A stretch of 32,000 nucleotides of DNA from Trichodesmium erythraeum IMS101 (GTDB lineage Bacteria; Cyanobacteriota; Cyanobacteriia; Cyanobacteriales; Microcoleaceae), in assembly GCF_000014265.1 (NCBI RefSeq), contig NC_008312.1, positions 5,340,001 to 5,372,000 on the forward strand, given 5' to 3'. A program made the position numbers and the translations under genes. The notes under the pieces were generated by a model, which saw only the letters and a list, made by a program, of their open reading frames with translations, did no database searches and was not told the DNA's origin. Below, one piece after another: positions 1 through 32,000 of the stretch (within the stretch, counting starts at the first letter, position 1; each line of letters starts with the position of its first letter).

Positions 1-1880
1 GTTGCTATCATCTACATCTGTGATACTAACATCGCTGTCTCCTATGTTTACTGCCGTTCCTTCTGTGAAAGTTGTTATGTAGTCACTGCCTGTTGTCGTA
101 CTATTATCCCCATCTAAGTCTAATACGGGAGCATCATTGACTCTAGCAATATTTATTGTTGTTGTGGCTGTACTACTATCAGCATCACCATCGTTCACCA
201 CTACGGTCACTATCCTATCGGTGGTATTAGGGTTTTCCGAGGTGTTGTTATATTGTATTTGGGCTATGGCTGTCTGATACTCAGCTAATGTAGCGCTGCC
301 TGTGAGTGTTATGACTCCTGTACTACTGTTATAACTGCTCGCTGTTATTCCTGTTGGTAGTGTACCGTTGACTAATAAGCTTTCTACTGTATCTCCGTCT
401 GGTCGACTGCCTAATGTTATTGTGGCTGACTCTATGTTGCTATCATCTTCATCTGTGATACTAACATCGCTGTCTCCTATGTTTACTGCCGTTCCTTCTG
501 TGAAAGTTGTTGTGTAGTTGTTCCCTGTAGCGGTACTACTATCATCGTCATCTAAGTCTAATGTGGGAGGGTCATTTACTGCAACAACACTTATTGTTGT
601 TGTGGCTGTGTTACTATTAGCATCACCATCGTTCACCACTACGGTTACTGTCCGAGCTGTCGTGGTGTCTGGGTTGTCCGAGGTGTTGTCATATTGTATT
701 TGGGCTATGGCTGTCTGATACTCAGCTAATGTAGCGGGGCCTGTGAGTGTTATGACTCCTGTACTACTGTTATAACTGCTCGCTGTTATTCCTGTTGGCA
801 GTGTACTGCTGACTGATAAGCTTTCTACTGTATCTCCGTCTGGTCGACTACTTAATGTTATTGTGGCTGACTGTATGTCGCTATCATCTACATCTGTGAT
901 ACTAACATCGTTGTCTGCTATGGCTACTGCTGCTCCATCTTCCGTGAAGGTTGTTATATAGTTGCTGCCTGTAAGTCTACCACTACTATCATTCTCATCT
1001 AAGTCTAATATGGGAGGGTCATTGACTGAAACAACACTTATTGTTGTTGTGGCTATATTACTATTAGCTTCACCATCATTCACCACTACGGTTACGCTCC
1101 GAGCCGTGGTGTTTGGGCTTTCCGAGGTGTTGTTGTATTGTATTTGGGCTATGGCTGTCTGATACTGAGATAATGTAGCGCTGCCTGTCAGTGTTATGAC
1201 TCCTGTACTACTAGTACTGTCATAAGTATAAGTACCGGCTGTTATTCCTGATGGCAGTGTACCGTTGACTAATAAGCTTTCTAATGTTCCGTCTTGTATG
1301 TTCGTTAATGTTATTGTGGCTGAGTCTATGTTGATATCATCTGCATCTGTTATACCAACATTGTTTCCTATAGGTACTGCTCCTCCGCCTTCTGTGAAAG
1401 TTTTTGTGTAGTCATTCCCTGTGTTATCCCCATCTAAGTCTAATGTGGGAGGGTCATTTACTGGAACAACACTTATTGTTGTTGTGGCTGTGTTACTATT
1501 AGCTTCACCATCATTCACCACTACAGTCACAGTCCGAGCCCTGCTGTCTGGGTTGTCCGAGGTGTTGTTATATTGTATTTGGGCTATGGCTGTCTGATAC
1601 TCAGCTAATGTAGCGGGGCCTGTGAGTGTTATGACTCCTGTACTACTGTCATAACTGCTCGCTGTTATTCCTGTTGGCAGTGTACCGGCGGATAAGCTTT
1701 CTAATGTTCCGTCTTGTATGTTCGATAATGTTATTGTGGCTGACTCTATGTTGATATCATCTGTATCTGTGATTCTAACATCGTTGTCTCCTATGGCTAC
1801 TGCTACTCCGCCTTCTGTGAAATTTGTTATGTAGTCGTTGCCTGTAGCGGTACTACTATTATTCCCATCTAAGTCTAACC
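1..1880 (-). repeat. In-frame tandem coding repeats, period 435-447 nt, four full copies plus a partial copy that continues off-window
   Basis: The anchor word CATCTAAGTC recurs at 111, 549, 996, 1431 and 1866. Long stretches are nearly identical between copies, for example 1-75 versus 437-512. Confidence 0.9.
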
Positions 1881-4512
1881 TCGGTTTAATTTTTACGACA
1901 ATAGAGCCAGACGCTTCTAAGGCTCCTCCTGTTCCTTGGTCTGTATCGCTTGTATTCCCATCATTAATTGTGTAGTTGATAGTTATTGGATCTGAGTTAA
2001 TAGCCGCGTTATTACCCTGGTTACTATAAGCAATATTTTGTAACGCTTTATCAACTAAATCTCCTGTTGCACTACCATTAAATGTTAGTACTAATGTGCC
2101 GCCACTATTGGTAGTGACTGTACCAATATTTGTCCCATCTACTGTGACATTTCCATTCTCGACTAAGTCTCCTAATATGATATTATTACCACTACTAAAT
2201 GTATCGTCAGTGTTTACTCCACCATTTCTTACCAACGTTAGGATAGCTTGGTTATAATTGTCTCTTAAGTCTAATTCAGCATCAGTAATAATAGCATCAC
2301 CATCTAAAATAACTGCACTACCACCTATCTCATAAGTTGGGGTATTATCTAAGTTTTCTAAAGTAGGATCGTCATTGACTGCCTGAACAGCGACTGTTGT
2401 AGTATGCTTCCGACCGCCGCTATCTGGGCCGAAAATTTCATCTGATGTGTTACCATCTGCATCTGTGAGGACAAACTGTATAGTTCTGTTTGTCGTGTTT
2501 GGGTTCTCGCTATCGTTTTTAAACTGAATAGCTATAATTGCTGCCTCAAAGTCATCTACACTAGCTGTAGTTCCTGTTGCTGTTGTAGGTGTAAGAGTCA
2601 GAGCTATATTATTGGTTCCCGCCGTATTTCCTGTACCTACACGTGCAATAGTTATATTTCCTACGGTTGCTGATGCTCCATCTGCCACGGTAGCACCACG
2701 AACTAACAGCTCGTCGCCATCATAGGCATTAGTCAAGGTAACAGTTGCTGTAGTTAACCTACTGCCAGCAGAAACAACACCACTGTTATTAGTATTAGTA
2801 GCAGTAGTAATATTATCAGGGTCGCTTATATTTATGTAATCCTTGATAATTAGACCCTTGTGCAAAACAGGGTCGTTAGGATTTTCTGGATCTGGATCCG
2901 TCTCCGTCATTGTGTTGACTATATCAAGCGCAGTACTATCACCTTCTGTAAACGTACCTGCATTATAATCTACATCAGTAACAATGTCCTTATCTGTCTC
3001 CGTGCCATTTAAGTCTATTAGTGGGATATGGAAAACCGAGCTTAGGTCACTCGTCGACATACCATCAGTGGCCTGATCAGTTTGTCCGTCTGTATTAGAA
3101 ACAAGTTCTTCAGCCGCTCGGGGCGTGCTTAACGTATCCTGATCCGGACTAAAGTTAGCCAAGTTATAGGCTTGCCCATTCTTACTAACATATAACCCCC
3201 CTTCAGAACTAGTCCAAGCTGCTTCAAAACTAGTATAAACCGCACCAGTGAGGGGATTAAAACTAACAAAATCGCCCAAAAGCAGATTTGTGTTGCTATT
3301 ATTACCATTAGCGTCCCTTACGAATACGTTTCCAGTCCGGGCGGGCCTAAGTGTGGTTACTTTGCTTACGTCCTGATCAACACCAGCAGCAGTGATATCT
3401 ATGCGGAAAATTAGACCAGTAGTGCCGACACCAAAAAGATAGTCTTTGCTATCAGCGTTAACATAGGCTACGTCTTCCGGTATATCATTCCAGTTCGTGT
3501 CAATCCAATTAGTATCTATCTTACCTGTAGAGACGTGACTTGGATCAGTAAGTTTGATCCGGTACACAGATGAGTTGAACTCAAGCTCATCCTCTGACTT
3601 AAATAACACCCAGAAATAACCCTTGTCGTCTACATCTCCAGCAGCAGGTTTTGAGCTGTTAGTTGTAGTAATAGTAAAAGCATCGGCGCTGTTGCTACTT
3701 ACACCACCACTGCTTGTGACATATTCAACAGTACCCGTTGAGTCTATTCTCACAAGTCTATGACTAGTGCCAGTAACCCTTTCCATGGCATACATGTAAT
3801 TATCAGCACGGTTAAGACCAGCTGCATTTATGTCTTTGCCAGTATCACCAATTTCGATAAACTGTCTTGTTAATGGGTTCAGCTCTTTGAGTATACCTTC
3901 TTTGATTTGATATACTGCTGGTCTGTCGTCAAAAGCTGCAAGAACATAACCCCATGTTCTTTGTATCTGTTTAGTGAAAGGTACAACTACCTGCAACTCA
4001 CCTCTAACAAACCCCAACTCCCAGGTAGCACCAAAAGCAATACTACCAATTAACTTCGCCGAAGCCGCAATATTCGCCCCTGTCAGCTGATGTAGTTTTT
4101 CAATAAATTCCCTACCACAATTTCCCGCAGCTACATAACATCCATAGATCAATATATTATTTACAGAGAGGGCTTCTAACTGAAGCATTATAGTATGACT
4201 ACTCTGAATACTCTTGATATTGAATCTACCATTACCCAAAGATAAACAGCCCGGGGTACCATGACATACTATATGTATAGATAAGACCTGAGGCTGCTCT
4301 TCGAGAGCCCTAAAAATTTGCCCAAAACCATCGGAAGAAGGGTCAATAATAACTACTTTTATTCCTGGTAAAACTCCATTAGCTAACCTCTGGTAGCCTC
4401 CTACACTGGAGTCGATAAATACTATTTCTTCTGGATAATCTATTTCATTTGGGACATAACTAGTTTTGCTGAGTCTTTCAATATATGAGTGAGAGATATT
4501 AAAGCTAGACAT
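1..4512 (-). CDS. Giant surface/secreted repeat protein (5' part only). DUF4347-like N-terminal module, a beta-rich middle region, then tandem ~145-aa cadherin-like/Ig-like repeats. The C-terminal part lies beyond the left window edge.
   Basis: Hand translation of the minus strand. ATG is at 4512-4510, with AGGAG (reverse complement of 4522-4526) 9 nt upstream. The N-terminus reads MSSFNISHSYIERLSKTSYVPNEIDYPEEIVFIDSSVGGYQRLANGVLPGIKVVIIDPSSDGFGQIFRALEEQPQVLSIHIVCHGTPGCLSLGNG...ILIYGCYVAAGNCGREFIEKLHQLTGANIAASAKLIG...WELG, the pattern I know as DUF4347. The frame stays open to base 1 (1504 codons). Repeat units read VNDPPTLDLD..NY.TTFTEG..AV.I.D.DV.ITD.DD..I.SATITL...D..ESL...GTLPTGITASSYNSSTGVITLTG.ATLAEYQTAIAQIQYNNTS.NP.T..R.VTVVVNDG.ANSN.ATTTISV. 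Confidence 0.85.
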   Translation of the reverse strand, partial: MSSFNISHSYIERLSKTSYVPNEIDYPEEIVFIDSSVGGYQRLANGVLPGIKVVIIDPSSDGFGQIFRALEEQPQVLSIHIVCHGTPGCLSLGNGRFNIKSIQSSHTIMLQLEALSVNNILIYGCYVAAGNCGREFIEKLHQLTGANIAASAKLIGSIAFGATWELGFVRGELQVVVPFTKQIQRTWGYVLAAFDDRPAVYQIKEGILKELNPLTRQFIEIGDTGKDINAAGLNRADNYMYAMERVTGTSHRLVRIDSTGTVEYVTSSGGVSSNSADAFTITTTNSSKPAAGDVDDKGYFWVLFKSEDELEFNSSVYRIKLTDPSHVSTGKIDTNWIDTNWNDIPEDVAYVNADSKDYLFGVGTTGLIFRIDITAAGVDQDVSKVTTLRPARTGNVFVRDANGNNSNTNLLLGDFVSFNPLTGAVYTSFEAAWTSSEGGLYVSKNGQAYNLANFSPDQDTLSTPRAAEELVSNTDGQTDQATDGMSTSDLSSVFHIPLIDLNGTETDKDIVTDVDYNAGTFTEGDSTALDIVNTMTETDPDPENPNDPVLHKGLIIKDYINISDPDNITTATNTNNSGVVSAGSRLTTATVTLTNAYDGDELLVRGATVADGASATVGNITIARVGTGNTAGTNNIALTLTPTTATGTTASVDDFEAAIIAIQFKNDSENPNTTNRTIQFVLTDADGNTSDEIFGPDSGGRKHTTTVAVQAVNDDPTLENLDNTPTYEIGGSAVILDGDAIITDAELDLRDNYNQAILTLVRNGGVNTDDTFSSGNNIILGDLVENGNVTVDGTNIGTVTTNSGGTLVLTFNGSATGDLVDKALQNIAYSNQGNNAAINSDPITINYTINDGNTSDTDQGTGGALEASGSIVVKIKPRLDLDGNNSSTATGNDYITNFTEGGVAVAIGDNDVRITDTDDINIESATITLSNIQDGTLESLSAGTLPTGITASSYDSSTGVITLTGPATLAEYQTAIAQIQYNNTSDNPDSRARTVTVVVNDGEANSNTATTTISVVPVNDPPTLDLDGDNTGNDYTKTFTEGGGAVPIGNNVGITDADDINIDSATITLTNIQDGTLESLLVNGTLPSGITAGTYTYDSTSSTGVITLTGSATLSQYQTAIAQIQYNNTSESPNTTARSVTVVVNDGEANSNIATTTISVVSVNDPPILDLDENDSSGRLTGSNYITTFTEDGAAVAIADNDVSITDVDDSDIQSATITLSSRPDGDTVESLSVSSTLPTGITASSYNSSTGVITLTGPATLAEYQTAIAQIQYDNTSDNPDTTTARTVTVVVNDGDANSNTATTTISVVAVNDPPTLDLDDDDSSTATGNNYTTTFTEGTAVNIGDSDVSITDEDDSNIESATITLGSRPDGDTVESLLVNGTLPTGITASSYNSSTGVITLTGSATLAEYQTAIAQIQYNNTSENPNTTDRIVTVVVNDGDADSSTATTTINIARVNDAPVLDLDGDNSTTTGSDYITTFTEGTAVNIGDSDVSITDVDDSN

Positions 4513-4959
4513 TATTGGACACTCCTGATAAGCAACAATAGAGCTTTACTTAAGGTTTTTATATAAAAAGTTTAATAATAATATTAGATTAACTTAACTA
4601 TTGAGAAATACTTAGTTTTCTTCTCAAGAATAATCAAGTCAGATTTTTTTTAAAGTTAATAAGTTTAATTTTCTGAGTCTTAAATAGGCAGGTTTGTTGA
4701 ATGAATATTTAGTCTTCTCAGAGCTAAGTATTCTTAACTAATTTCAGATAGTTTAATTAGAGGATAAGTTACAAGGTCTCGGAGTTAGTAAATCAAAAGA
4801 TGAAACCTTCAAAGTGATTCCTTTGTGATAGTGGGAAAAAACTATTAATAACTAACCAAAGTTGATAACAGGTGTTACCTGAAAAGGAAAATCATCTTCA
4901 CAATGACCAACCGGAAAACCTATAAGAAAATATCAATAAAATAAATCTTAGGGTCTACT

Positions 4960-6446: not shown

Positions 6447-7757
6447 GTGAAAATTATTGCATATTCATACACCGATCCTCTGCAGGGACCAGCACCAGAC
6501 CAAACTATTTGGGGATGGGAAATTGACCAAATATATGAAGACCTAGGCGATCGCCAACAACTTGAAAAACTGCTACAGGACTCCGAAGCCGAACCACCTA
6601 ACTATCTCCTAGTTCAGGAACTAGAGGAACTAGGAAACTCAGTAGAAGAAGTGTGTAACCGCCTGGCTCAACTAGAAAGTCTGAAAATAAAAACGATCCC
6701 CCTAAAATCAGAAATCAAAATAAACCAACCCTGGCCCAGCACATCGAACATAACGAAAGCCGAGCTACTGAAACTCCTGAACGAAATTCGCCAAAAGCAA
6801 CACAGCCGAAAAATTCGTGAAGCCCATGCCCGTAACCGAGTCAAAGGAACACCTCCCCCAGGTAAAGCACCCTATGGTTACCGCCGAGGGAAAGACCGCT
6901 ATACCCTTGATAAAAACACCGCCCCCATCATTAAAGAATTTTTTGAAAGCTTTCTGTTATTCGGGTCTCTCCGTGGAGCCGTCCGTCATATTGAGCAAAA
7001 ATACGGAAAAAAAATCTCAGTCACCACAGGGCGACGTTGGTTAACTAACCCTGTTTATCGGGGAGACCTACAATATCAAAACGGTGAAATTATCTCCAAT
7101 GCCCATGTTCCCATTATTTCCAGAGAAGAAGCCTCTCAAGTAGAACGCTTGCTCCAAAGGAACAGCAAAATGCCACCACGAACCGCAAGCACTCCCCATT
7201 CTTTAGGAGGCTTAGTTGTGTGCAAAGAATGTCAGTCTCAAATGATAACTGCCAAAGTTACCACCTTTCGCAGAAACAAAGAGTACCTTTACCTACGGCC
7301 AAAAAGTTGCCCCCGTACGCAAAAATGTAAAGCCTTAGCCTATGAAGAAATATTAGAGCAAACCATAAAAACAATTTGTCAAGAGTTACCCCTTGCTGTT
7401 GCCTCTTTTGATGCGCCACAGATAGAAGAAGCTAAAGCGAACATCAAAAATAACATTTGTGAAAAAACAGAAATGCTTTCAAGACTACCAAATTTAATAA
7501 CTGAGGGAGTCTTTGACGAAGAAACAGCCAAACTCCGCGCTTACAAACTCAAAACAGAAATTTCTCAATTAGAAAACAAGCTTTATAAATTACCTCCAGT
7601 CAAGTTATTAGAAACAGCAAAAACAGTATCCATACCTCAGTTTTGGTGGGACTTATCTGAGTCAGAACGCAGATTTTACCTGCGGGAATTTATCAGTAGA
7701 ATAGAAATTATTCGTCAAGGTGTAAATTGGAATTTACAAGTAATTTTTGTATTTTAG
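6447..7757 (+). CDS. Large-serine-recombinase-like protein (recombinase domain, zinc ribbon, coiled coil) with a degenerate N-terminal catalytic domain
   Basis: GTG start. PPPGKAPYGYRRGKDRYTLDKNTAPIIKEFFESFLLFGSLRGAVRHIEQKYG...RRWLTNPVYRGDL matches the recombinase domain. CKECQSQM...CPRTQKC matches the Zn ribbon. A C-terminal coiled coil follows. The N-terminus reads IIAYSYTDPLQG where resolvases have GY.RVST..Q, and LEELGNS where they have LDRLGR. Confidence 0.7.
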   Translation: MKIIAYSYTDPLQGPAPDQTIWGWEIDQIYEDLGDRQQLEKLLQDSEAEPPNYLLVQELEELGNSVEEVCNRLAQLESLKIKTIPLKSEIKINQPWPSTSNITKAELLKLLNEIRQKQHSRKIREAHARNRVKGTPPPGKAPYGYRRGKDRYTLDKNTAPIIKEFFESFLLFGSLRGAVRHIEQKYGKKISVTTGRRWLTNPVYRGDLQYQNGEIISNAHVPIISREEASQVERLLQRNSKMPPRTASTPHSLGGLVVCKECQSQMITAKVTTFRRNKEYLYLRPKSCPRTQKCKALAYEEILEQTIKTICQELPLAVASFDAPQIEEAKANIKNNICEKTEMLSRLPNLITEGVFDEETAKLRAYKLKTEISQLENKLYKLPPVKLLETAKTVSIPQFWWDLSESERRFYLREFISRIEIIRQGVNWNLQVIFVF

Positions 7758-24986: not shown

Positions 24987-25209
24987 AAGTGAAGATAAGT
25001 CAAAACCAAAAGTATAATTTGCTTATTTATCTATTAATACCTCTTCATAAAGTATTTGCCCCTTACTCTGCCATTCCATTCATAGGCATTTTTGGAAAGG
25101 TCAATAAATAAACCAAATTCCTCCTGAAAAAAATCTGGTACCAATAGCACTTGGGGTACATGATGAAGTATATTTGAAGAGTAACCGACCCTACCCCACC
25201 AAATGCATT

Positions 25210-25992
25210 ATGCCCAGAAAACCTCGAAATCTTTTAGCTGGATACTCCTATCACATTACGACTCGTTGCAATAACCGTGAATTTAAACTTTCACGGCGCC
25301 AATGTCGGGAGGTATTTCTTTATGCTATTAAAAAGGTTTCCACAAAATACAATTTTCGGCTTTATGCATTGTGCATTATGTCTAATCATGTTCATTATTT
25401 GATTGAACCCTTACAACCAGAAGATTTACCGAAAATCATGCACTTCCTCAACTGGTATACGGCTATGTGTTTCAACAGAATGTTAAAACGTACAGGGCAT
25501 TTTTGGGAAAAACGATATTACTCTAATGGGTTTCCTTCCTCAGATAAAGAAAGAGCATTGAATACTTTGCGTTACATTCATGGCAACCCTAAAGCTGCCA
25601 AAATGCGTTGCGGCTTTTTCTACGACTTTAGCAACTATGGTAGCTACGAATGTTTGACTAATGATGGCCTAACTCAATGGCATCCTGCTTTCTTGGAGTT
25701 AGCTAACACTCTGGAAGAATGTGCACAAAAATATAAGGGATTTTGTCGTAAATATAAGCCCAAACAAAAAAAAGGAAAAAAGTGTCACTGGGGTAGTAAG
25801 TTTTTAGGGGGTATTGTTCTGTCTTTTGATGGCAGAAATTCTCGTTCTACGAAGAAGAACTCTACAAAAAAGAAGGAGTCAACCCTCTTTGACTTTCCGC
25901 CGACGGTAATGCCGGAGGAAAATAAAGAAATAGCAAGGGTAGTTAGTCAATTTGTTGTAGCCAATAGACCCTCAGTCAGATGGGGGGGGTAA
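25210..25992 (+). CDS. HUH/Y1 single-strand DNA transposase-like protein of the RAYT/IS200 (Y1_Tnp, COG1943) type with a Lys-rich C-terminal tail
   Basis: YHITTRCNNREF is present. The HUH motif SNHVHYLIEP has its first His at 25387-25389. The catalytic-Tyr motif LRYIHGNPKAA has Tyr at 25573-25575. I prefer ATG 25210 (MPRKPRNLL...) to TTG 25174. The gene has host-like AT-rich composition. Confidence 0.8.
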   Translation: MPRKPRNLLAGYSYHITTRCNNREFKLSRRQCREVFLYAIKKVSTKYNFRLYALCIMSNHVHYLIEPLQPEDLPKIMHFLNWYTAMCFNRMLKRTGHFWEKRYYSNGFPSSDKERALNTLRYIHGNPKAAKMRCGFFYDFSNYGSYECLTNDGLTQWHPAFLELANTLEECAQKYKGFCRKYKPKQKKGKKCHWGSKFLGGIVLSFDGRNSRSTKKNSTKKKESTLFDFPPTVMPEENKEIARVVSQFVVANRPSVRWGG

Positions 25993-26434
25993 ACATCCTC
26001 GCCGGCTTCCCTGTTTCCCCCCGCGGCGCTCTATGTAGGCCACATGCTCCCCGCCGGCCGCCGCGGCCGCCGCCGCCGCTGCGCTGCGCTGTCATTTGGC
26101 CACCCCGCGCTCCCTCTCGCCGCGCTGTCCAAAAGTTCCGCTGTCCATCTGGGGTGTCCATCTCTGATGGGCCATTTTGTGTAGTGAGGTCCGCTGTCCA
26201 TCTCTTTTCTTGTCAGACTTAGGGACTTGAAGGTGTCGGGCAAGGGGTCTGGCACGGAGGCAACGGCGCCACCCTGCGCTCCCTCAAGTTGGCTTGTGCT
26301 GAGTTGTCCAAACAAAAAATAACACCATCCATCACCATGAGTAGGGAGTTAGGATGATGGGGAGGAAGGCGCCACCCACCGAAGGCGCCACCCTGCGCTC
26401 CCTCGGGGTGTGCTGGTGCTGAGTTGGTGTCCAT

Positions 26435-26468
26435 TGCGCTCCCTCTGCGCTCCCTCATGCGCTCCCTC
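26435..26468 (+). repeat. Tandem triple TGCGCTCCCTC (iteron-like), copy 1
   Basis: 11-mers start at 26435, 26446 and 26458, so the spacing is 11 and 12 bp. Confidence 0.9.
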
Positions 26469-26854
26469 AGGGGTGATCTGGTTCACGAGCGCCCACGCCA
26501 TTGTGGCCCATGTGGCAAAAAGGCAGTTGGTGGCCCACAAAAGTAAAGGCCGCCACAAGGCCGCCATCGCCATACACATACTAAGGCCACAGGCCACTGG
26601 CGCGGATAACCGATCGGGAGGCGGCGGAACCGGGAAGGATCTAAGAATAAATCGGCGGGGCGCGGACCGGCGGAGGAGGAGGGGGCGCGGAAGAGGGGAA
26701 AACCACCCTGCGCTTTTTCTAGTTGGCTGCAGCAGAGTGGAGTCCATTGCGCTCCCTCGACTTCCGACTGACTTAAAAGACTTAGGTTTTTGCACGGGGG
26801 CGGCTGATCTGGCAGGCTGATCTGTGTGGTGTCTTGTGCTGAGTTGGTGTCCAT

Positions 26855-26888
26855 TGCGCTCCCTCTGCGCTCCCTCATGCGCTCCCTC
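26855..26888 (+). repeat. Tandem triple TGCGCTCCCTC (iteron-like), copy 2
   Basis: Identical to 26435-26468, offset by 420 nt. Confidence 0.9.
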
Positions 26889-27356
26889 AGGGGTGATCTG
26901 GTTCAGGTTCAGGTTCGAACGTCCAAGGGGGACACAGGGGACACGCGTCGAAGGGCCTAGATGGCCACGGCGCTTCCGAGCGCCCTTATGCCATTGTGGC
27001 CCATGTGGCAAGGAGTTGGCAGTTGGTGGCCCACCATAGTTGGTGGCCCACGGCCCAGGGAGGCCGCCACAAGGCAACTTAACGATCAATCGATCCGAAA
27101 TTAGGCACGCGGGCCGGCTGCTCAGGTAGGTATGGTGGCTCATAGTTGCATTGGTTGCAACCACCCTGCACTTTTTCAAGTTGGCTGCAGCAGAGTGGAG
27201 TCCATTCCGCTCCCTCGACTTTGGACTTAAGGGGTGAAGGGGTTGCAGGTGATCTGGGATAAGTGTGGTGTCTCATGTGGTTGGAAGTAGTTTTTTGATT
27301 TTATAATGGATAATTAACATTAGCATAGTTTTTGGATTTATGAACAGGATTTTATT

Positions 27357-30300
27357 ATGAACAGATGTCTTATGGCTTTTCCTTTCCTTTCCATAGCCTT
27401 TCCTTTCCTTTCCGTCTGCACTTTCCTTGTTTTTTCCCCCTTCGCCCTCGCTCAACTCCTGCCAGATAATACATTGGGAGAAGAAAATTCTGTCGTCACA
27501 CCCAATAATATAAAAGGGAAAGATCGCATCATAATAGATGGCGGGGCCCAAAGAGGGGCCAACTTATTCCACAGTTTTCAAGAATTCAACATTCAACAGG
27601 GACGAGGGGTTTACTTTAGCAACCCTGATGGAGTTCAAAATATCCTGACGAGGGTCACAGGAAACAAGGCTTCTCAGATATTTGGCACCTTGGGTGTAGA
27701 TGGAAAAGCTGATTTATTTTTCATTAACCCCAATGGCATAATTTTTGGGCCAGAGGCTAAACTAGATGTCCAAGGTTCATTCTTTGGAGCTACTGCGGAT
27801 AGTATCTTATTTAACAATGGATTTGAATTTGCTAGTTCAGACCCTCAAGCACCCCCACTACTAACAGTTAATGTTCCCATTGGTTTGAGGTTGCCCGAAA
27901 ACCCTGGTAGTATTTTGGTTGAGGGTCTAGGTCATAACATAAATATGTCAGAGTACCTAGAAACGATATTCGACGGAAAGGAAAAAGGCCCTCGAGACGG
28001 AAAAGAGGACCGGAATCTTGGGTTGGAAGTTTCCCAAGGCCAAACCTTGGGGTTAGTTGGTGGTGATATATTCTTAAGGGGGGGAAACCTCACATCAATT
28101 GGAGGACGTGTTGAATTAGGAAGTGTTCACAATGGGGTAGTAGGAATCAGGAAAGACCAAACCCTTAGCTATGATCCCAACCTGAAATTTGGCCAAATAC
28201 AAATATCTAAAGAGAGCTCTATAGATGTAAGTGGAAATGGAAGAGTTGAATTTCAAATTCAAGGAGAAGAGATAAAAGTGCGAGATGCTTCAATAATTAC
28301 AGGAGAGATTAAAGGCGAAGGCGAAGGCGAAGGCGAAAAAGGGGGAAATTCAATTATTAAAGCGTCTAAGTCTATTAAAATAGAAGCCGGAGAGTATTCG
28401 GAACTAACTTTAAGGTTAACTTCCGATAAACTTCCGAAACAAGATTTTAATTTTAATAAGACTTACAGTGCTATTATTCTAAGCACTTTCGGTAAGAGAG
28501 ATGTCGGGGAGTTGAAGGTGGAAACAGAAAGTTTAACGCTGCAAGATGGAGCCTTTATTTCTACGACTACTTCTGGTCAGGGAAATGCAGGGAATATTAC
28601 AGTCTCTGCTAGAGACATAGAAATGAATGGTGGCGGTGACGGTGCTACTTTGGTTACAATGACATTTGCATTTGCAAAAGGTAACGCAGGGAATTTAACG
28701 CTGAAAGCTGCAGAAAGTTTAACGCTGCACGACGCTATCATTTCTACGGGATCTTTTGGTTCAGCTCAGGGAAATACAGGGAAATTAACAGTCTCCGCTA
28801 ATGCTATAGAAATAAATGCCGTAGCGAGCGAGGGGGCTGGTTTTTTTAGCGAGCGAGGCAGTGGCAAAGGTAAGGGAGGGAATTTAACGGTGAAAGCTGC
28901 AGAAAGTTTAACGCTAGTTGGCAATGGATTTATTTCTACCAGTACTTTTGGTGATGGAGATGCAGGGAATTTAACAGTGTCTGCTAGAGATATAGAAATG
29001 AGTGGGACAAGTCGGATGGCGGCACAAACAGGTACAAGGCAAACAGGTGGCAAAGGTAAGGGAGGGACTTTAATGGTGAAAGCTGCAGAAAGTTTAACGC
29101 TGCAAGATAAAGCCTTTATTTCTACCGATACTAAAGGTGATGGAGATGCAGGGAATTTAACAGTGTCTGCTAGAGATATAGAAATGAACAGTGTCTTTGG
29201 TTTGCTTGCACAGACAGAAAACAAAGGTAATGGAGGGAATTTAACGGTGAAAGCTGCAGAAAGTTTAACGCTAGTTGGCAATGGAGTTATTTCTACCAGT
29301 GCTTTTGGTGATGGAGATGCAGGGAATTTAACAGTGTCTGCTAGAGATATAGAAATGAGTGGGAAAAGTCGGATGGTGGCACAAACAGGTAGAAGGCAAA
29401 CAGGTGGCAAAGGTAAGGGAGGGACTTTAATGGTGAAAGCTGCAGAAAGTTTAACGCTGCAAGATGAAGCCTTTATTTCTACCACTACTTTTGGTGATGG
29501 AGATGCAGGGAATTTAACAGTGTCTGCTAGAGATATAGAAATGAGTAGTATTTTTGGTTCTGGTGTGTTTGCACAGACAGAAAACAAAGGTAATGGAGGG
29601 AATTTAACGGTGGAAGTTGCAGAAAGTTTAACACTGCAAGATGGAGCCATTATTTCTACCAGAAGTCTTGGTGATGGAGATGCAGGAAATATAACTATCT
29701 CTGCTAGAGATATAGAAATAATTGGCACATCTCCTGATGGTAAATACTTCAGTAGCTTAACCGCAGAAGGCAGAGCAAAAGGAGCAGCAGGAAGCATAAC
29801 CATCAACAGCAACAACATCCGCCTCGAAAACCAAGCTAACCTCAAAGCTGAAACCCAAGCAGGGGGTGAAGGCAGCATTATCATCAATAATAACAAAGAC
29901 CTCATCCTGCGCAACAAAAGCAAAATAACCACTAGTGCTAAAGGCAGGGCCACTGGAGGTAATATTACTATTAAGACGGAAAACTTAGTCGCCCCAGATA
30001 ACAGCGACATCTCTGCTGACGCTGAAAAAGCATCTGGAGGCCAAGTCGACATCACCGCAGCAGGTATATTCGGCATAAAATTCCGTCCTGAAAAAACAGA
30101 AAGAAGTGATATCACAGTCACCTCAGAATTTGACAGAGATGGAGAAGTCAATATCAACACCCCCGATGTAGATCCTAGTGACGGACTAGTAGAATTTGAC
30201 GATACCATCCCAGATATCTCCAACCTCCTCGACCAAAACCCTTGCCGAAAAGGACAAAACAGCAAATTCATCATTACAGGAAGAGGTGGCTTACCACCAA

Positions 30301-32000
30301 CTCTCGAAGATCCCTTTACTCCCACCCACATCTGGCAAGGCTCAGAAACCTCAGTTACTCCTCCAAAAGCCATCACTCCATCAGAGCAAGAATTCATTGA
30401 AGCACAAGGTTGGATCTCTAATTCTCAAGGTATTGAACTGATCACCAACCCCGAAACTGCTACTCCCACCTCCCCTTGGTTAATACCTCCCAACTGCAAA
30501 CAATTAGACGCCTTTGAACCCCCACCCTATCTACTCGCTAGCAGTAAGGGAAATATTCCCACCTCAACTTCTGAACCTCTAAAAGTTACTATCAAACAAT
30601 TCAACTTTGAGGGTAACACAAAATTTAGCAACCAAGAGCTACAACAACAACTCACACCTTATCTAAATAAACCCATTACCTTTGCTCAACTCATAGCAGC
30701 ACGCACTGCTATTACAAAATATTATACCAAAAACAACTACATCACATCGGGAGCATTTATTCCTCCCCAAACTATGTCTGACAATGGCACAGTTACCCTC
30801 CGAGTAGTAGAAGGAAAAGTTGGTGAAATCAACGTCAATATCCAAGGTAGATTAAATGAAAATTATATCAAAAGTCGGTTAGAAAAAGCTACCACAGCTC
30901 CTCTGAATCAAGAAAAATTGGTGTCTGCCCTACAACTATTACAAATAGACCCTTTAGTCAAAACTATATCTGCGGAACTTTCATCCGGAGTCCGCCCAGA
31001 TACAAGTAGGTTAGACATAAGAATAGAAACAGCTAACCCCTGGCAAATAGAAACTATCAGTAATAATGGCAGGGCACCAAGTGTGGGAACATTCAGGCGA
31101 GGGGTAGAAGTAGGTCATAGGAATGTTACAGGTATTGGAGACAGTTTAAATGCTCTCTACACGAATACTGATGGCAGCGACATGGTAGAAGTATCTTATG
31201 CTATTCCTGTGAACTCCAGTAATGGTCGTATCGAACTATTTTATCGCCACAGAGATAATAAGGTAGTAGAATCACCTTTTGAAAGACTCGATATTGAGTC
31301 AAATTCAAATACTTACAAGTTATCATTTAGTCAACCAATAATGCAAACACCCTGGCAAACTTTAACTTTGGGTTTATCTGCAATAAAGCGAGATAGTCAA
31401 ACTTCCATATTAGGAGAGAATTATCCATTATCTGAGGGTGCAGATGAAAATGGGGAAACGAAATTATCAATTTTGCAGCTTTTCCAAGATTATGAACTAC
31501 GGGGAAAAAATCAAGTTTTGGCGTTTAATTCTCAGTTGAATGTAGGGTTGGGAATATTGGATGCCACAAAGAATAGTAGTGAACCGGATAGTCGATTTTT
31601 GTATTGGCGGGGTCAGGGACAATGGGTGCGTGAGTTAGCCAAAAATACTTTGTTGGTGGTTGGAGCAGATCTACAGTTATCTCCATTTGATTTGGTGCCT
31701 AAAGAGCAGTTTGGTTTAGGAGGTTATCGAAGCGTGAGAGCCTATCGTCAGGATACTCGTTTAACAGATAATGGAGCGTTGGGAACAGTGGAGTTGCGCT
31801 TGCCGCTGCCCTGGATATCTGGAAAAAATAGATTATTTCAGGTAGTGCCGTTTATTGATGGGGGGGTAGCATGGAATAGTGATGATGAAGAGGTAGAAGG
31901 AAGTAAGGCTTTGGCGGCGGCCGGGGTGGGGTTGCAGGTAAATTTATGGGAGAAGATAAATATGCGCTTAGATTATGGAATTCCTTTAGTGGATGTGGAC
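27357..32000 (+). CDS. Single-ORF fusion of a TpsA-like passenger (signal peptide, TPS/haemagglutination-activity domain, FHA-type beta-helix repeats) to a TpsB-like transporter (two POTRA modules and a ShlB/FhaC-type barrel). The 3' end lies beyond the window.
   Basis: Hand translation from ATG 27357 gives MNRCLMAFPFLSIAFPFLSVCTFLVFSPFALAQ, then GAQRGANLFHSFQEFNIQQGRGVYFSNPDGVQNILTRVTGNKASQIFGTLGVDGKADLFFINPNGIIFGPEAKLDVQGSFF (TPS domain). Seven GNAGNLTV.A..IE-type units follow. Next come ...KFIITGRGGLPPTLEDP (~30275) and EAQGWISNSQGIELI. POTRA follows: LKVTIKQFNFEGNTKFSNQELQQQLTPYLNKPITFAQLIAARTAITKYYTKNNYITSGAFIPPQ...VTLRVVEGKVGEINV (from ~30579). The barrel carries FGLGGYRSVRAYRQD (L6 VRGY-type motif). 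I saw no stop in 1548 codons. The ORF track lists no + ORF ending inside this span in this frame, which agrees. Confidence 0.8.
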   Translation, partial: MNRCLMAFPFLSIAFPFLSVCTFLVFSPFALAQLLPDNTLGEENSVVTPNNIKGKDRIIIDGGAQRGANLFHSFQEFNIQQGRGVYFSNPDGVQNILTRVTGNKASQIFGTLGVDGKADLFFINPNGIIFGPEAKLDVQGSFFGATADSILFNNGFEFASSDPQAPPLLTVNVPIGLRLPENPGSILVEGLGHNINMSEYLETIFDGKEKGPRDGKEDRNLGLEVSQGQTLGLVGGDIFLRGGNLTSIGGRVELGSVHNGVVGIRKDQTLSYDPNLKFGQIQISKESSIDVSGNGRVEFQIQGEEIKVRDASIITGEIKGEGEGEGEKGGNSIIKASKSIKIEAGEYSELTLRLTSDKLPKQDFNFNKTYSAIILSTFGKRDVGELKVETESLTLQDGAFISTTTSGQGNAGNITVSARDIEMNGGGDGATLVTMTFAFAKGNAGNLTLKAAESLTLHDAIISTGSFGSAQGNTGKLTVSANAIEINAVASEGAGFFSERGSGKGKGGNLTVKAAESLTLVGNGFISTSTFGDGDAGNLTVSARDIEMSGTSRMAAQTGTRQTGGKGKGGTLMVKAAESLTLQDKAFISTDTKGDGDAGNLTVSARDIEMNSVFGLLAQTENKGNGGNLTVKAAESLTLVGNGVISTSAFGDGDAGNLTVSARDIEMSGKSRMVAQTGRRQTGGKGKGGTLMVKAAESLTLQDEAFISTTTFGDGDAGNLTVSARDIEMSSIFGSGVFAQTENKGNGGNLTVEVAESLTLQDGAIISTRSLGDGDAGNITISARDIEIIGTSPDGKYFSSLTAEGRAKGAAGSITINSNNIRLENQANLKAETQAGGEGSIIINNNKDLILRNKSKITTSAKGRATGGNITIKTENLVAPDNSDISADAEKASGGQVDITAAGIFGIKFRPEKTERSDITVTSEFDRDGEVNINTPDVDPSDGLVEFDDTIPDISNLLDQNPCRKGQNSKFIITGRGGLPPTLEDPFTPTHIWQGSETSVTPPKAITPSEQEFIEAQGWISNSQGIELITNPETATPTSPWLIPPNCKQLDAFEPPPYLLASSKGNIPTSTSEPLKVTIKQFNFEGNTKFSNQELQQQLTPYLNKPITFAQLIAARTAITKYYTKNNYITSGAFIPPQTMSDNGTVTLRVVEGKVGEINVNIQGRLNENYIKSRLEKATTAPLNQEKLVSALQLLQIDPLVKTISAELSSGVRPDTSRLDIRIETANPWQIETISNNGRAPSVGTFRRGVEVGHRNVTGIGDSLNALYTNTDGSDMVEVSYAIPVNSSNGRIELFYRHRDNKVVESPFERLDIESNSNTYKLSFSQPIMQTPWQTLTLGLSAIKRDSQTSILGENYPLSEGADENGETKLSILQLFQDYELRGKNQVLAFNSQLNVGLGILDATKNSSEPDSRFLYWRGQGQWVRELAKNTLLVVGADLQLSPFDLVPKEQFGLGGYRSVRAYRQDTRLTDNGALGTVELRLPLPWISGKNRLFQVVPFIDGGVAWNSDDEEVEGSKALAAAGVGLQVNLWEKINMRLDYGIPLVDVD
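28869..29588 (+). repeat. Two near-identical in-frame super-repeats (357 and 363 nt), each made of two beta-helix units, inside the TPS-fusion gene
   Basis: GGTAA(G/T)GGAGGGAATTTAACGGTGAAAGCTGCAGAAAGTTTAACGCTAGTTGGCAATGGA starts at 28869 and 29226, and a third diverging copy starts at 29589. By eye the two copies differ by only scattered substitutions. Confidence 0.85.

Follow-up and report, generated by a model that had tools for sequence, protein, structure and literature searches.

Type V secretion systems are classed by whether the passenger and its transporter are made as one protein or as two. How, then, should one read a gene in which a two-partner secretion (TPS) exoprotein of the TpsA type and an outer-membrane transporter of the TpsB type lie in a single polypeptide? 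The question is raised by a gene at positions 27357-32000 on the forward strand of a stretch of Trichodesmium erythraeum IMS101 DNA of 32,000 nt (NC_008312.1, 5,340,001-5,372,000), which as a whole is called the window here. Pfam recognises TPS, POTRA_2 and ShlB domains in the same frame, in agreement with a first-pass annotation that had described TpsA-type and TpsB-type parts in one chain. The fused architecture is real and conserved, and it has already been noted in the literature; the analysis below concerns its anatomy, its origin and what the joining of the two partners may mean for export.

Starting from the ATG at 27357, translation runs for 1548 codons to the window end at 32000 without meeting a stop, and the list of open reading frames (ORFs) of the window contains no complete forward-strand ORF in this frame, so that the continuity claimed for it is upheld. 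The gene appears to be cut by the window edge 22 codons before its stop, judging from the protein P0002, which is identical over the last 50 aa and continues past the edge as SRDKTAQEEGFYFSFSTTPFSF, a normal aromatic outer-membrane beta-signal. The first part of the polypeptide, as annotated, is a Sec signal peptide (27357..27452, forward strand, aa 1-32), read from the sequence as MNRCLMAFPFLSIAFPFLSVCTFLVFSPFALA followed by QL, with ALA immediately before QL. Its Kyte-Doolittle hydrophobicity reaches a maximum of 2.2 in a 15-aa window, and the signal peptides of orthologs end in AIAQL at the equivalent position. Within the signal peptide, positions 27375-27416 hold a direct duplication, AFPFLS(I) followed by AFPFLS(V), in which tttcctttcctttcc occurs twice; the octamer atgaacag is likewise repeated in the start region, at 27340 and 27357.

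The TPS domain follows (27450..28223, forward strand, aa 32-289; Pfam PF05860, E 4e-53; NCBIfam TIGR01901, adhes_NPXG, E 3e-27). It carries NLFHSF at 27561, FSNPDG in the position of the NPNL motif, the first motif thus reading NPDG, and NPNGI at 27726 (aa 124-128); a signal peptide and a TPS domain with NPNL/NPNGI-type motifs are the marks of a TpsA exoprotein. The invariant columns of a 55-sequence alignment (A1) are found mostly in this domain. Beyond it, repeat analysis delimits a putative beta-helix shaft (28224..30128, forward strand) made up of a non-repeat part, seven repeat units and a conserved C-terminal cap (aa 813-924). The units are Gly-rich, 57-63 aa long, and occupy aa 388-812 (nt 28518-29792), with starts at aa 388, 450, 513, 575, 632, 694 and 753; their number is the one given in the annotation. 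At the DNA level, Tandem Repeats Finder reports periods of 186 and 357 bp in the shaft, and a 357-bp super-repeat with 91% identity spans 28865-29719. Homologs range in length from 865 to 1974 aa because their repeat numbers differ. A 543-aa ORF on the opposite strand (28766-30397) lies wholly within the passenger repeat region; it is most likely no gene but a side effect of repeats in which stops are scarce.

The C-terminal half has the features of a TpsB transporter. Two ShlB-type POTRAs (30585..31001, forward strand, aa 1077-1153 and approximately 1154-1215; Pfam POTRA_2 PF08479 at aa 1078-1153, E 8e-21) precede a TpsB/Omp85 barrel of 16 strands (31002..32000, forward strand; Pfam ShlB PF03865 at aa 1216-1527, E 4e-24), which the window cuts 22 aa before the C-terminus. 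The annotated order of two POTRAs, beginning at 30579, and a barrel with GGYRSVRAY is thereby confirmed, and phmmer matches of the POTRA region include CdiB (6wim) and the TpsB4 POTRA (2mhj). Motif reading places GGYRSVRAY, the L6 motif, at 31719-31745 and FIDGG, an FxDxG motif, at 31851-31865, both on the forward strand; these correspond to the (V/I)RG(Y/F) and FxDxG signatures of the family, but the window L6 has Ala for Gly. Structural support comes from an AlphaFold2 model of P0021, a homolog of the window protein that is a natural 865-aa mini-version (pLDDT 70.5). This model is confident for the TPS domain (aa 40-170), both POTRAs and 16 barrel strands, and shows a short confident hairpin at the EAQGW element described below; P0021 naturally lacks the shaft, and passenger strands are modelled for its TPS domain only. 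Two POTRAs and a 16-stranded barrel are also supported by Foldseek (CdiB 6wim, TMt 0.71; FhaC 4qky, TMt 0.69). The barrel is accordingly of the Omp85/TpsB kind, with POTRAs, and not the 12-stranded barrel with a pore helix of classical (type Va) autotransporters.

A separate TpsB would carry its own signal peptide and H1 plug, and neither is present here. The annotation had suggested that the passenger replaces both; the loss of the signal peptide is borne out, but the replacement of H1 is not. Unfused transporter relatives consist of a signal peptide, a Pro-rich stretch of 30-70 aa (often with PPP.ELL.P) and then POTRA1, and no FhaC-like H1 helix is evident before POTRA1 in these cyanobacterial proteins. 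The corresponding linker in the P0021 model has a pLDDT below 50, and at this low confidence no helix is predicted in it. Some TpsB relatives of 700-1036 aa (P0123, P0126, P0140, P0142, P0199, P0205 and others) have long N-terminal extensions rich in Ser, Pro and Ala and of low complexity, in which no passenger domain can be recognised, and one relative, P0149, has an extra POTRA pair. We considered these long relatives as carriers of other passengers and rejected the idea, the extensions being of low complexity or, once, duplicated POTRAs.

Where do the two partners meet? The annotation had placed a linker of about 95 aa after the FIITGRGGLPP motif, which does lie at 30267-30299. Alignments with free-standing cyanobacterial TpsAs show that this stretch is no linker: fused proteins keep the whole C-terminal tail module of the free TpsAs, so that the supposed linker is a conserved domain. 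The tail module (30129..30506, forward strand, aa approximately 925-1050) has the order NTPDVDPS...C963...FIITGRGGLPP, a variable P/T-rich stretch, an EAQGW..G.V.L hairpin and P..C1047. In free-standing cyanobacterial TpsA-like proteins F.ITGRGGLP lies 84-113 aa from the C-terminus, and the second cysteine is a median of 4 aa (about 1-10 aa in aligned examples) from it, so that the loop of about 85 aa between the two cysteines forms the very end of the free proteins. Both cysteines are present in all 43 fused proteins compared and in 68 of 69 unfused ones, and the mature window protein has no cysteine besides C963 and C1047. Within the loop, G.GG.P is invariant, with R, K or Q in the second position, giving G(R/K/Q)GG(L/I)P. 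The tail module belongs to no Pfam family, and a profile of 25 tails found no match at E<=10 among all PDB chain sequences.

The true fusion linker is KQLDAFEPPPYLLASSKGNIPTSTSEP, a stretch of 29 aa (30498..30584, forward strand, aa 1048-1076) that alignment delimits and that contains a conserved (I/L)(I/L/V)AS motif. In 56 fused proteins the spacer between the second cysteine and POTRA1 usually measures 16-47 aa; its length in the clade of the window protein is 29 aa, while P0015, P0018 and P0027 have insertions of about 50-65 aa. Those of P0015 and P0018 (Dapis and relatives) are in-frame, about 55-65 aa long, read TRGSRLKLWEKPNPPTP...QIYPHF.ARRP, and look like a translated small mobile or repeat element; they indicate that the tether tolerates large insertions. 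Since aa 921-1100 of the window protein contain neither a methionine nor a hydrophobic stretch, the transporter half cannot be translated or exported alone. The passenger is thus not separate from its transporter, as a TpsA would be, and the frame offers neither an internal start nor an internal signal peptide. Tryptic peptides that span the junction would be QLDAFEPPPYLLASSK and GNIPTSTSEPLK.

Such a junction could in principle be an artefact, a sequencing or assembly frameshift having merged two adjacent genes in the window. Where relatives have the two genes split, tpsA runs 30-110 nt into tpsB in another frame, so that a single indel could join a split pair. The same in-frame junction is found, however, in independent isolates and metagenome-assembled genomes (MAGs) of at least seven genera; it is identical in P0002 and 96% identical at the nucleotide level in L001, and the signal peptide of TpsB is missing outright instead of being read through. 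The conservation of the junction in many genera and the deleted signal peptide effectively refute a frameshift, and we regard an artefact as extremely improbable. Local hidden Markov models detected the fused architecture, with tail and transporter in one chain, in 56 proteins of the collected sets, which belong to Trichodesmium, Okeania, Dapis, Lyngbya, Laspinema, Phormidium and Geitlerinema. About 45 of the best 120 homologs combine PF05860, PF08479 and PF03865 in one protein, and these are from Trichodesmium, Okeania, Dapis, Laspinema, Geitlerinema and [Phormidium]. Continuous fused ORFs occur at eleven genomic loci, and among species-representative genomes in Dapis, Okeania, Lyngbya, Laspinema, Phormidium and two uncultured cyanobacteria; the scan of these genomes gave no Trichodesmium locus, possibly because of masking. 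The annotation had allowed that orthologs might be consistently split, but the closest relatives are all fused, and only more distant loci are split. The transporter half was also searched exhaustively; of the 150 best clusters (at 50% identity), 14 were fully fused and 4 more partly, concentrated at the top ranks. The best database match, T. erythraeum IMS101 ABG52378.1/Q10ZE6, shares 81% identity across 60% of the query, and the window protein, which has more repeats, is a different allele or paralog. In one locus of the MAG 'Cyanobacteria bacterium P01_H01_bin.35' (L003:3673-7680) the fused gene is broken in the TPS/shaft region into ORFs of 236 aa and 1099 aa, which reflects either a frameshifted pseudogene or an assembly error.

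What did the fused gene arise from? Loci in which the partners are separate suggest an answer. The order tpsA, tpsB and a gene for a CHAT-domain protein was found in 15 split loci from Nostocales, Pleurocapsales and other groups, and the order tpsAB-CHAT, on the same strand, in 11 of 11 fused loci. The CHAT neighbour, about 850-950 aa long, combines a signal peptide, tetratricopeptide repeats (TPRs) and a CHAT domain (Pfam PF12770, E 1e-61), and both residues of its caspase-fold dyad, His and Cys, are invariant. Examples of TPR-CHAT genes downstream of the tps gene or genes lie at L002:8375-10951, L006:7681-10281, L027:7593-10454 and L029:7852-10665, among others. At the eleventh fused locus, a partial ORF after the gene of a Trichodesmium MAG shares the N-terminus of the CHAT protein; the CHAT gene of the window locus would lie past the window end. 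In the split loci the tpsA stop is 3-10 aa past the second cysteine, and the overlapping tpsB has its own signal peptide. Two loci that looked fused by tblastn, L009 (Crocosphaera) and L029 (Spirirestis), were rejected as such: they are split gene pairs, in which tpsA ends just past the second cysteine and overlaps tpsB in another frame. Comparison with such pairs indicates that fusion did away with the stop codon of tpsA and, on the TpsB side, with the signal peptide and the greater part of the Pro-rich N-terminus. Through these losses the fused gene would derive from the first two genes of a widespread cyanobacterial tpsA-tpsB-TPR-CHAT protease cassette.

In a neighbour-joining tree of 149 transporter halves, 34 of them fused, the fused state requires 4 changes (bootstrap 2-6), compared with about 31 for shuffled states. 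On the evidence of this tree, the fusion arose on a few occasions and was then stably kept. Among the fused proteins, identity is 44.6% in the TPS domain, 44.9% in the cap, 44% in the tail, 49.5% in the POTRAs and 49.3% in the barrel, and 28.6% in the shaft repeats; repeats and linker drift. The TPS domain is about as conserved in the fused proteins as in free TpsAs (46.9%), which argues that it is still needed.

How might such a fused protein work? POTRAs are periplasmic, and TPS domains dock on POTRAs. By analogy with separate TpsA-TpsB pairs, we think it probable, with some reserve, that the passenger is exported but remains anchored, with the Cys-loop tail kept in the periplasm and tied covalently to POTRA1. 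One precursor would cross the inner membrane by Sec, guided by the single N-terminal signal peptide that is legible in the sequence, and the C-terminal barrel of 16 strands, as its family membership suggests, would insert in the outer membrane. The TPS domain would then engage the POTRAs, and the beta-helix passenger would be threaded out through the barrel and fold on the surface. The Cys963-Cys1047 tail would be unable to follow and would stay in the periplasm, like the disulfide anchor of HMW1/HxuA, and would in addition be joined to POTRA1 by the 29-aa tether. A periplasmic tail is inferred because the cysteines are conserved, the linker is short and the POTRAs are known to be periplasmic; the spacing from the second cysteine to POTRA1 in most fused proteins supports this placement. 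Each transporter would in this way serve only once and hold its beta-helical fibre permanently on the cell; the fibre is most plausibly an adhesin of these filamentous, colony-forming cyanobacteria. Synteny makes the exported CHAT protease encoded alongside a candidate for its maturation or release.

The anchor has its closest parallel in Haemophilus influenzae HMW1/HxuA, where a small domain with a disulfide bond, at the C-terminus of TpsA, does not leave the periplasm and keeps the protein locked to its TpsB (PMC5422565), and cyanobacterial TpsBs fall in the HMW1B subgroup (PMC4104836). The shared feature is a Cys pair at the end of TpsA; in HMW1/HxuA, by contrast, the anchoring is non-covalent and the proteins are separate, and the cyanobacterial loop exceeds theirs in length and carries motifs not seen there, GRGGLPP and EAQGW. 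In the searches of Pfam and of the PDB chain sequences, the anchor showed no sequence homology to that of HMW1/HxuA. Several points weigh against the proposed arrangement. The likeness to HMW1/HxuA lies in the Cys pair and its position, and the tail has no detectable sequence similarity to any PDB chain, whatever HxuA or further TpsA constructs are among these included. The formation of the disulfide is assumed, and topology, export in cis or in trans and processing are inferred for every member. The P0021 model is of low confidence over most of the tail and linker, and the window L6 reads VRAY where P0021 has VRGY. Finally, PlpD, the one passenger-POTRA-Omp85 fusion that has been studied, keeps its passenger in the periplasm (Hanson 2024, PMC11116518).

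This last point leads to an alternative in which the passenger would never be exported and would fold in the periplasm against the POTRAs, the barrel serving as a membrane anchor or having some other function. PlpD, the only characterised fusion of this layout, sets the precedent (PMC11116518), but the passenger described here has a TPS domain and a Gly-rich putative beta-helix, the hallmark of exported type Vb substrates, and is homologous from end to end with free TpsAs that are encoded beside their own TpsB. The transporter, moreover, has two POTRAs and TpsB motifs and is not of the PL-Omp85 type; we consider a periplasmic passenger very unlikely. A less remote possibility is that export takes place in trans: the passenger may leave through a neighbour's barrel, or free TpsA paralogs, of which there are many, may use the fused barrel as well, with chains or cross-linked arrays as the result. 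The TPS domain is fully constrained, as expected if tethering does not guarantee recognition by the POTRAs, and free TpsA-like proteins that carry this tail are numerous in these genomes. A 29-aa tether would nevertheless put a passenger's own POTRAs at a far higher local concentration than those of other molecules, and export in trans differs from export of an anchored passenger in cis only in which barrel serves. We take it to be distinctly improbable.

The fused protein could also be a polyprotein. Fusion would then ensure 1:1 co-expression and co-export of the partners, and a periplasmic cut in the linker or tail, for instance by the CHAT protease, would yield a classical type Vb pair and release the passenger. 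A gene for an exported CHAT protease with an intact dyad follows every one of the eleven fused genes, the linker with its conserved (I/L)(I/L/V)AS motif and its tolerance of large insertions is what one would expect of an exposed, cleavable tether, and the tail holds the invariant G.GG.P motif. The CHAT gene is, however, equally conserved beside split tpsA/tpsB pairs, which have no junction to cut, so that its role is not specific to the fusion; and the P1-like residue of the GRGG motif varies between R, K and Q, which does not fit a uniform caspase-type site. Cleavage into a pair thus appears unlikely, although it is the strongest competitor of the anchored, exported passenger that we favour. 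A bolder reading may be entertained with low confidence: the tpsA-tpsB-CHAT cassette would form a type V system of a kind not described before, its exported CHAT protease acting on the Cys-loop tail, possibly at G(R/K/Q)GG(L/I)P, so as to release or activate the surface-anchored fibre. The fused form would then be the only genuine 'fused two-partner' (type Vd-style) autotransporter, since PlpD does not secrete its passenger.

How does the fusion relate to known systems? With FhaB/FhaC and CdiA/CdiB it shares the TPS domain, a putative beta-helix shaft, two POTRAs, a 16-strand barrel, an L6 (V/I)RG(Y/F)-like motif and FxDxG; those systems, however, consist of two polypeptides, and FhaC and CdiB have an H1 plug helix, in whose place the window protein and the unfused cyanobacterial relatives have a linker or a Pro-rich segment, respectively, without predicted helix. 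The type Vd or PL-Omp85 proteins PlpD and FplA have the same order of passenger, POTRA and 16-strand Omp85 barrel in one chain. PlpD differs in its patatin passenger, in usually having one POTRA and in lacking a TPS domain, and is not a homologous fusion event; Pfam finds no patatin match in the window protein. The type Vd-like layout proposed in the first-pass annotation consequently holds for the order of parts, but the analogy is weaker than supposed, the PlpD passenger being periplasmic and the protein dimeric (Hanson 2024, PMC11116518).

The annotation could not say how common or well characterised the architecture is. It has been on record since 2010, as a database observation: Tery_3487 of T. 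erythraeum was cited as a TPS gene fusion by Arnold, Zeth & Linke 2010 (PMC2878562) and again in the type Vd section of Leo, Grin & Linke 2012 (PMC3297439); that it is conserved across genera is added here. The window protein is of the Tery_3487 type: one gene, from the same genus-level lineage of cyanobacteria, encodes a haemagglutinin-like N-terminal passenger of putative beta-helical fold together with two POTRAs and a barrel. The published notes are of one or two sentences each and do not cover junction anatomy, distribution or neighbours. ABG52378.1 could not be confirmed as Tery_3487. Our literature search found Tery_3487 named only in these two papers and no experimental work on it, and the fusion is not mentioned in the Heinz & Lithgow 2014 Omp85/TpsB survey, the 2017 TPS review or the Aravind polymorphic-toxin paper. 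The search also found no paper linking CHAT domains with TPS, POTRA or haemagglutinin. The Cys-loop tail as the likely anchor, the origin from the tpsA-tpsB-CHAT cassette and the invariable CHAT neighbour seem unreported so far.

PlpD was the sole supposed bridge between the two-partner and autotransporter classes. A bona fide TPS domain and a putative beta-helix joined to a bona fide TpsB is therefore the best remaining natural test of whether an Omp85-type transporter can export a covalently attached substrate, and the coexistence of split and fused cassettes in nature allows a clean comparison. A second question is how the chain is arranged in the pore when both of its ends start in the periplasm, as a hairpin or with the N-terminus first. 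The fibres concerned would be large surface structures of bloom-forming and colony-forming marine nitrogen fixers such as Trichodesmium and Okeania, for which the adhesion of filaments to one another and to epibionts matters, and the linked CHAT protease hints at regulated shedding.

The surroundings of the gene hold no other TpsA or TpsB within the window. Upstream lie FtsH, an IS200-like transposase and housekeeping genes. The window FtsH is 89% identical to the ORF upstream of the fused gene of Dapis (L002), which makes the two loci syntenic. Between FtsH and the fused gene, the window has an ORF for an IS200-like Y1 transposase (25174-25992, forward strand), and the gap measures 2370 nt compared with about 1 kb in Dapis L002; the difference suggests an insertion in the lineage of the window. 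A 276-aa ORF at 26349-27179 on the reverse strand has no Pfam match, and Rfam and tRNA scans of the window came back empty. A gene for a large serine recombinase (Resolvase, Recombinase and Zn_ribbon_recom domains) is found at 6447-7757 on the forward strand; this gene and the IS200-like one suggest that mobile elements have been active here. At the left edge, positions 1-4545 of the reverse strand hold an open frame of at least 1515 aa that runs off the window. It begins with a DUF4347 domain (E 2e-44), contains repeats of about 441 nt (147 aa) in tandem and encodes another giant repetitive protein, probably of the cell surface.

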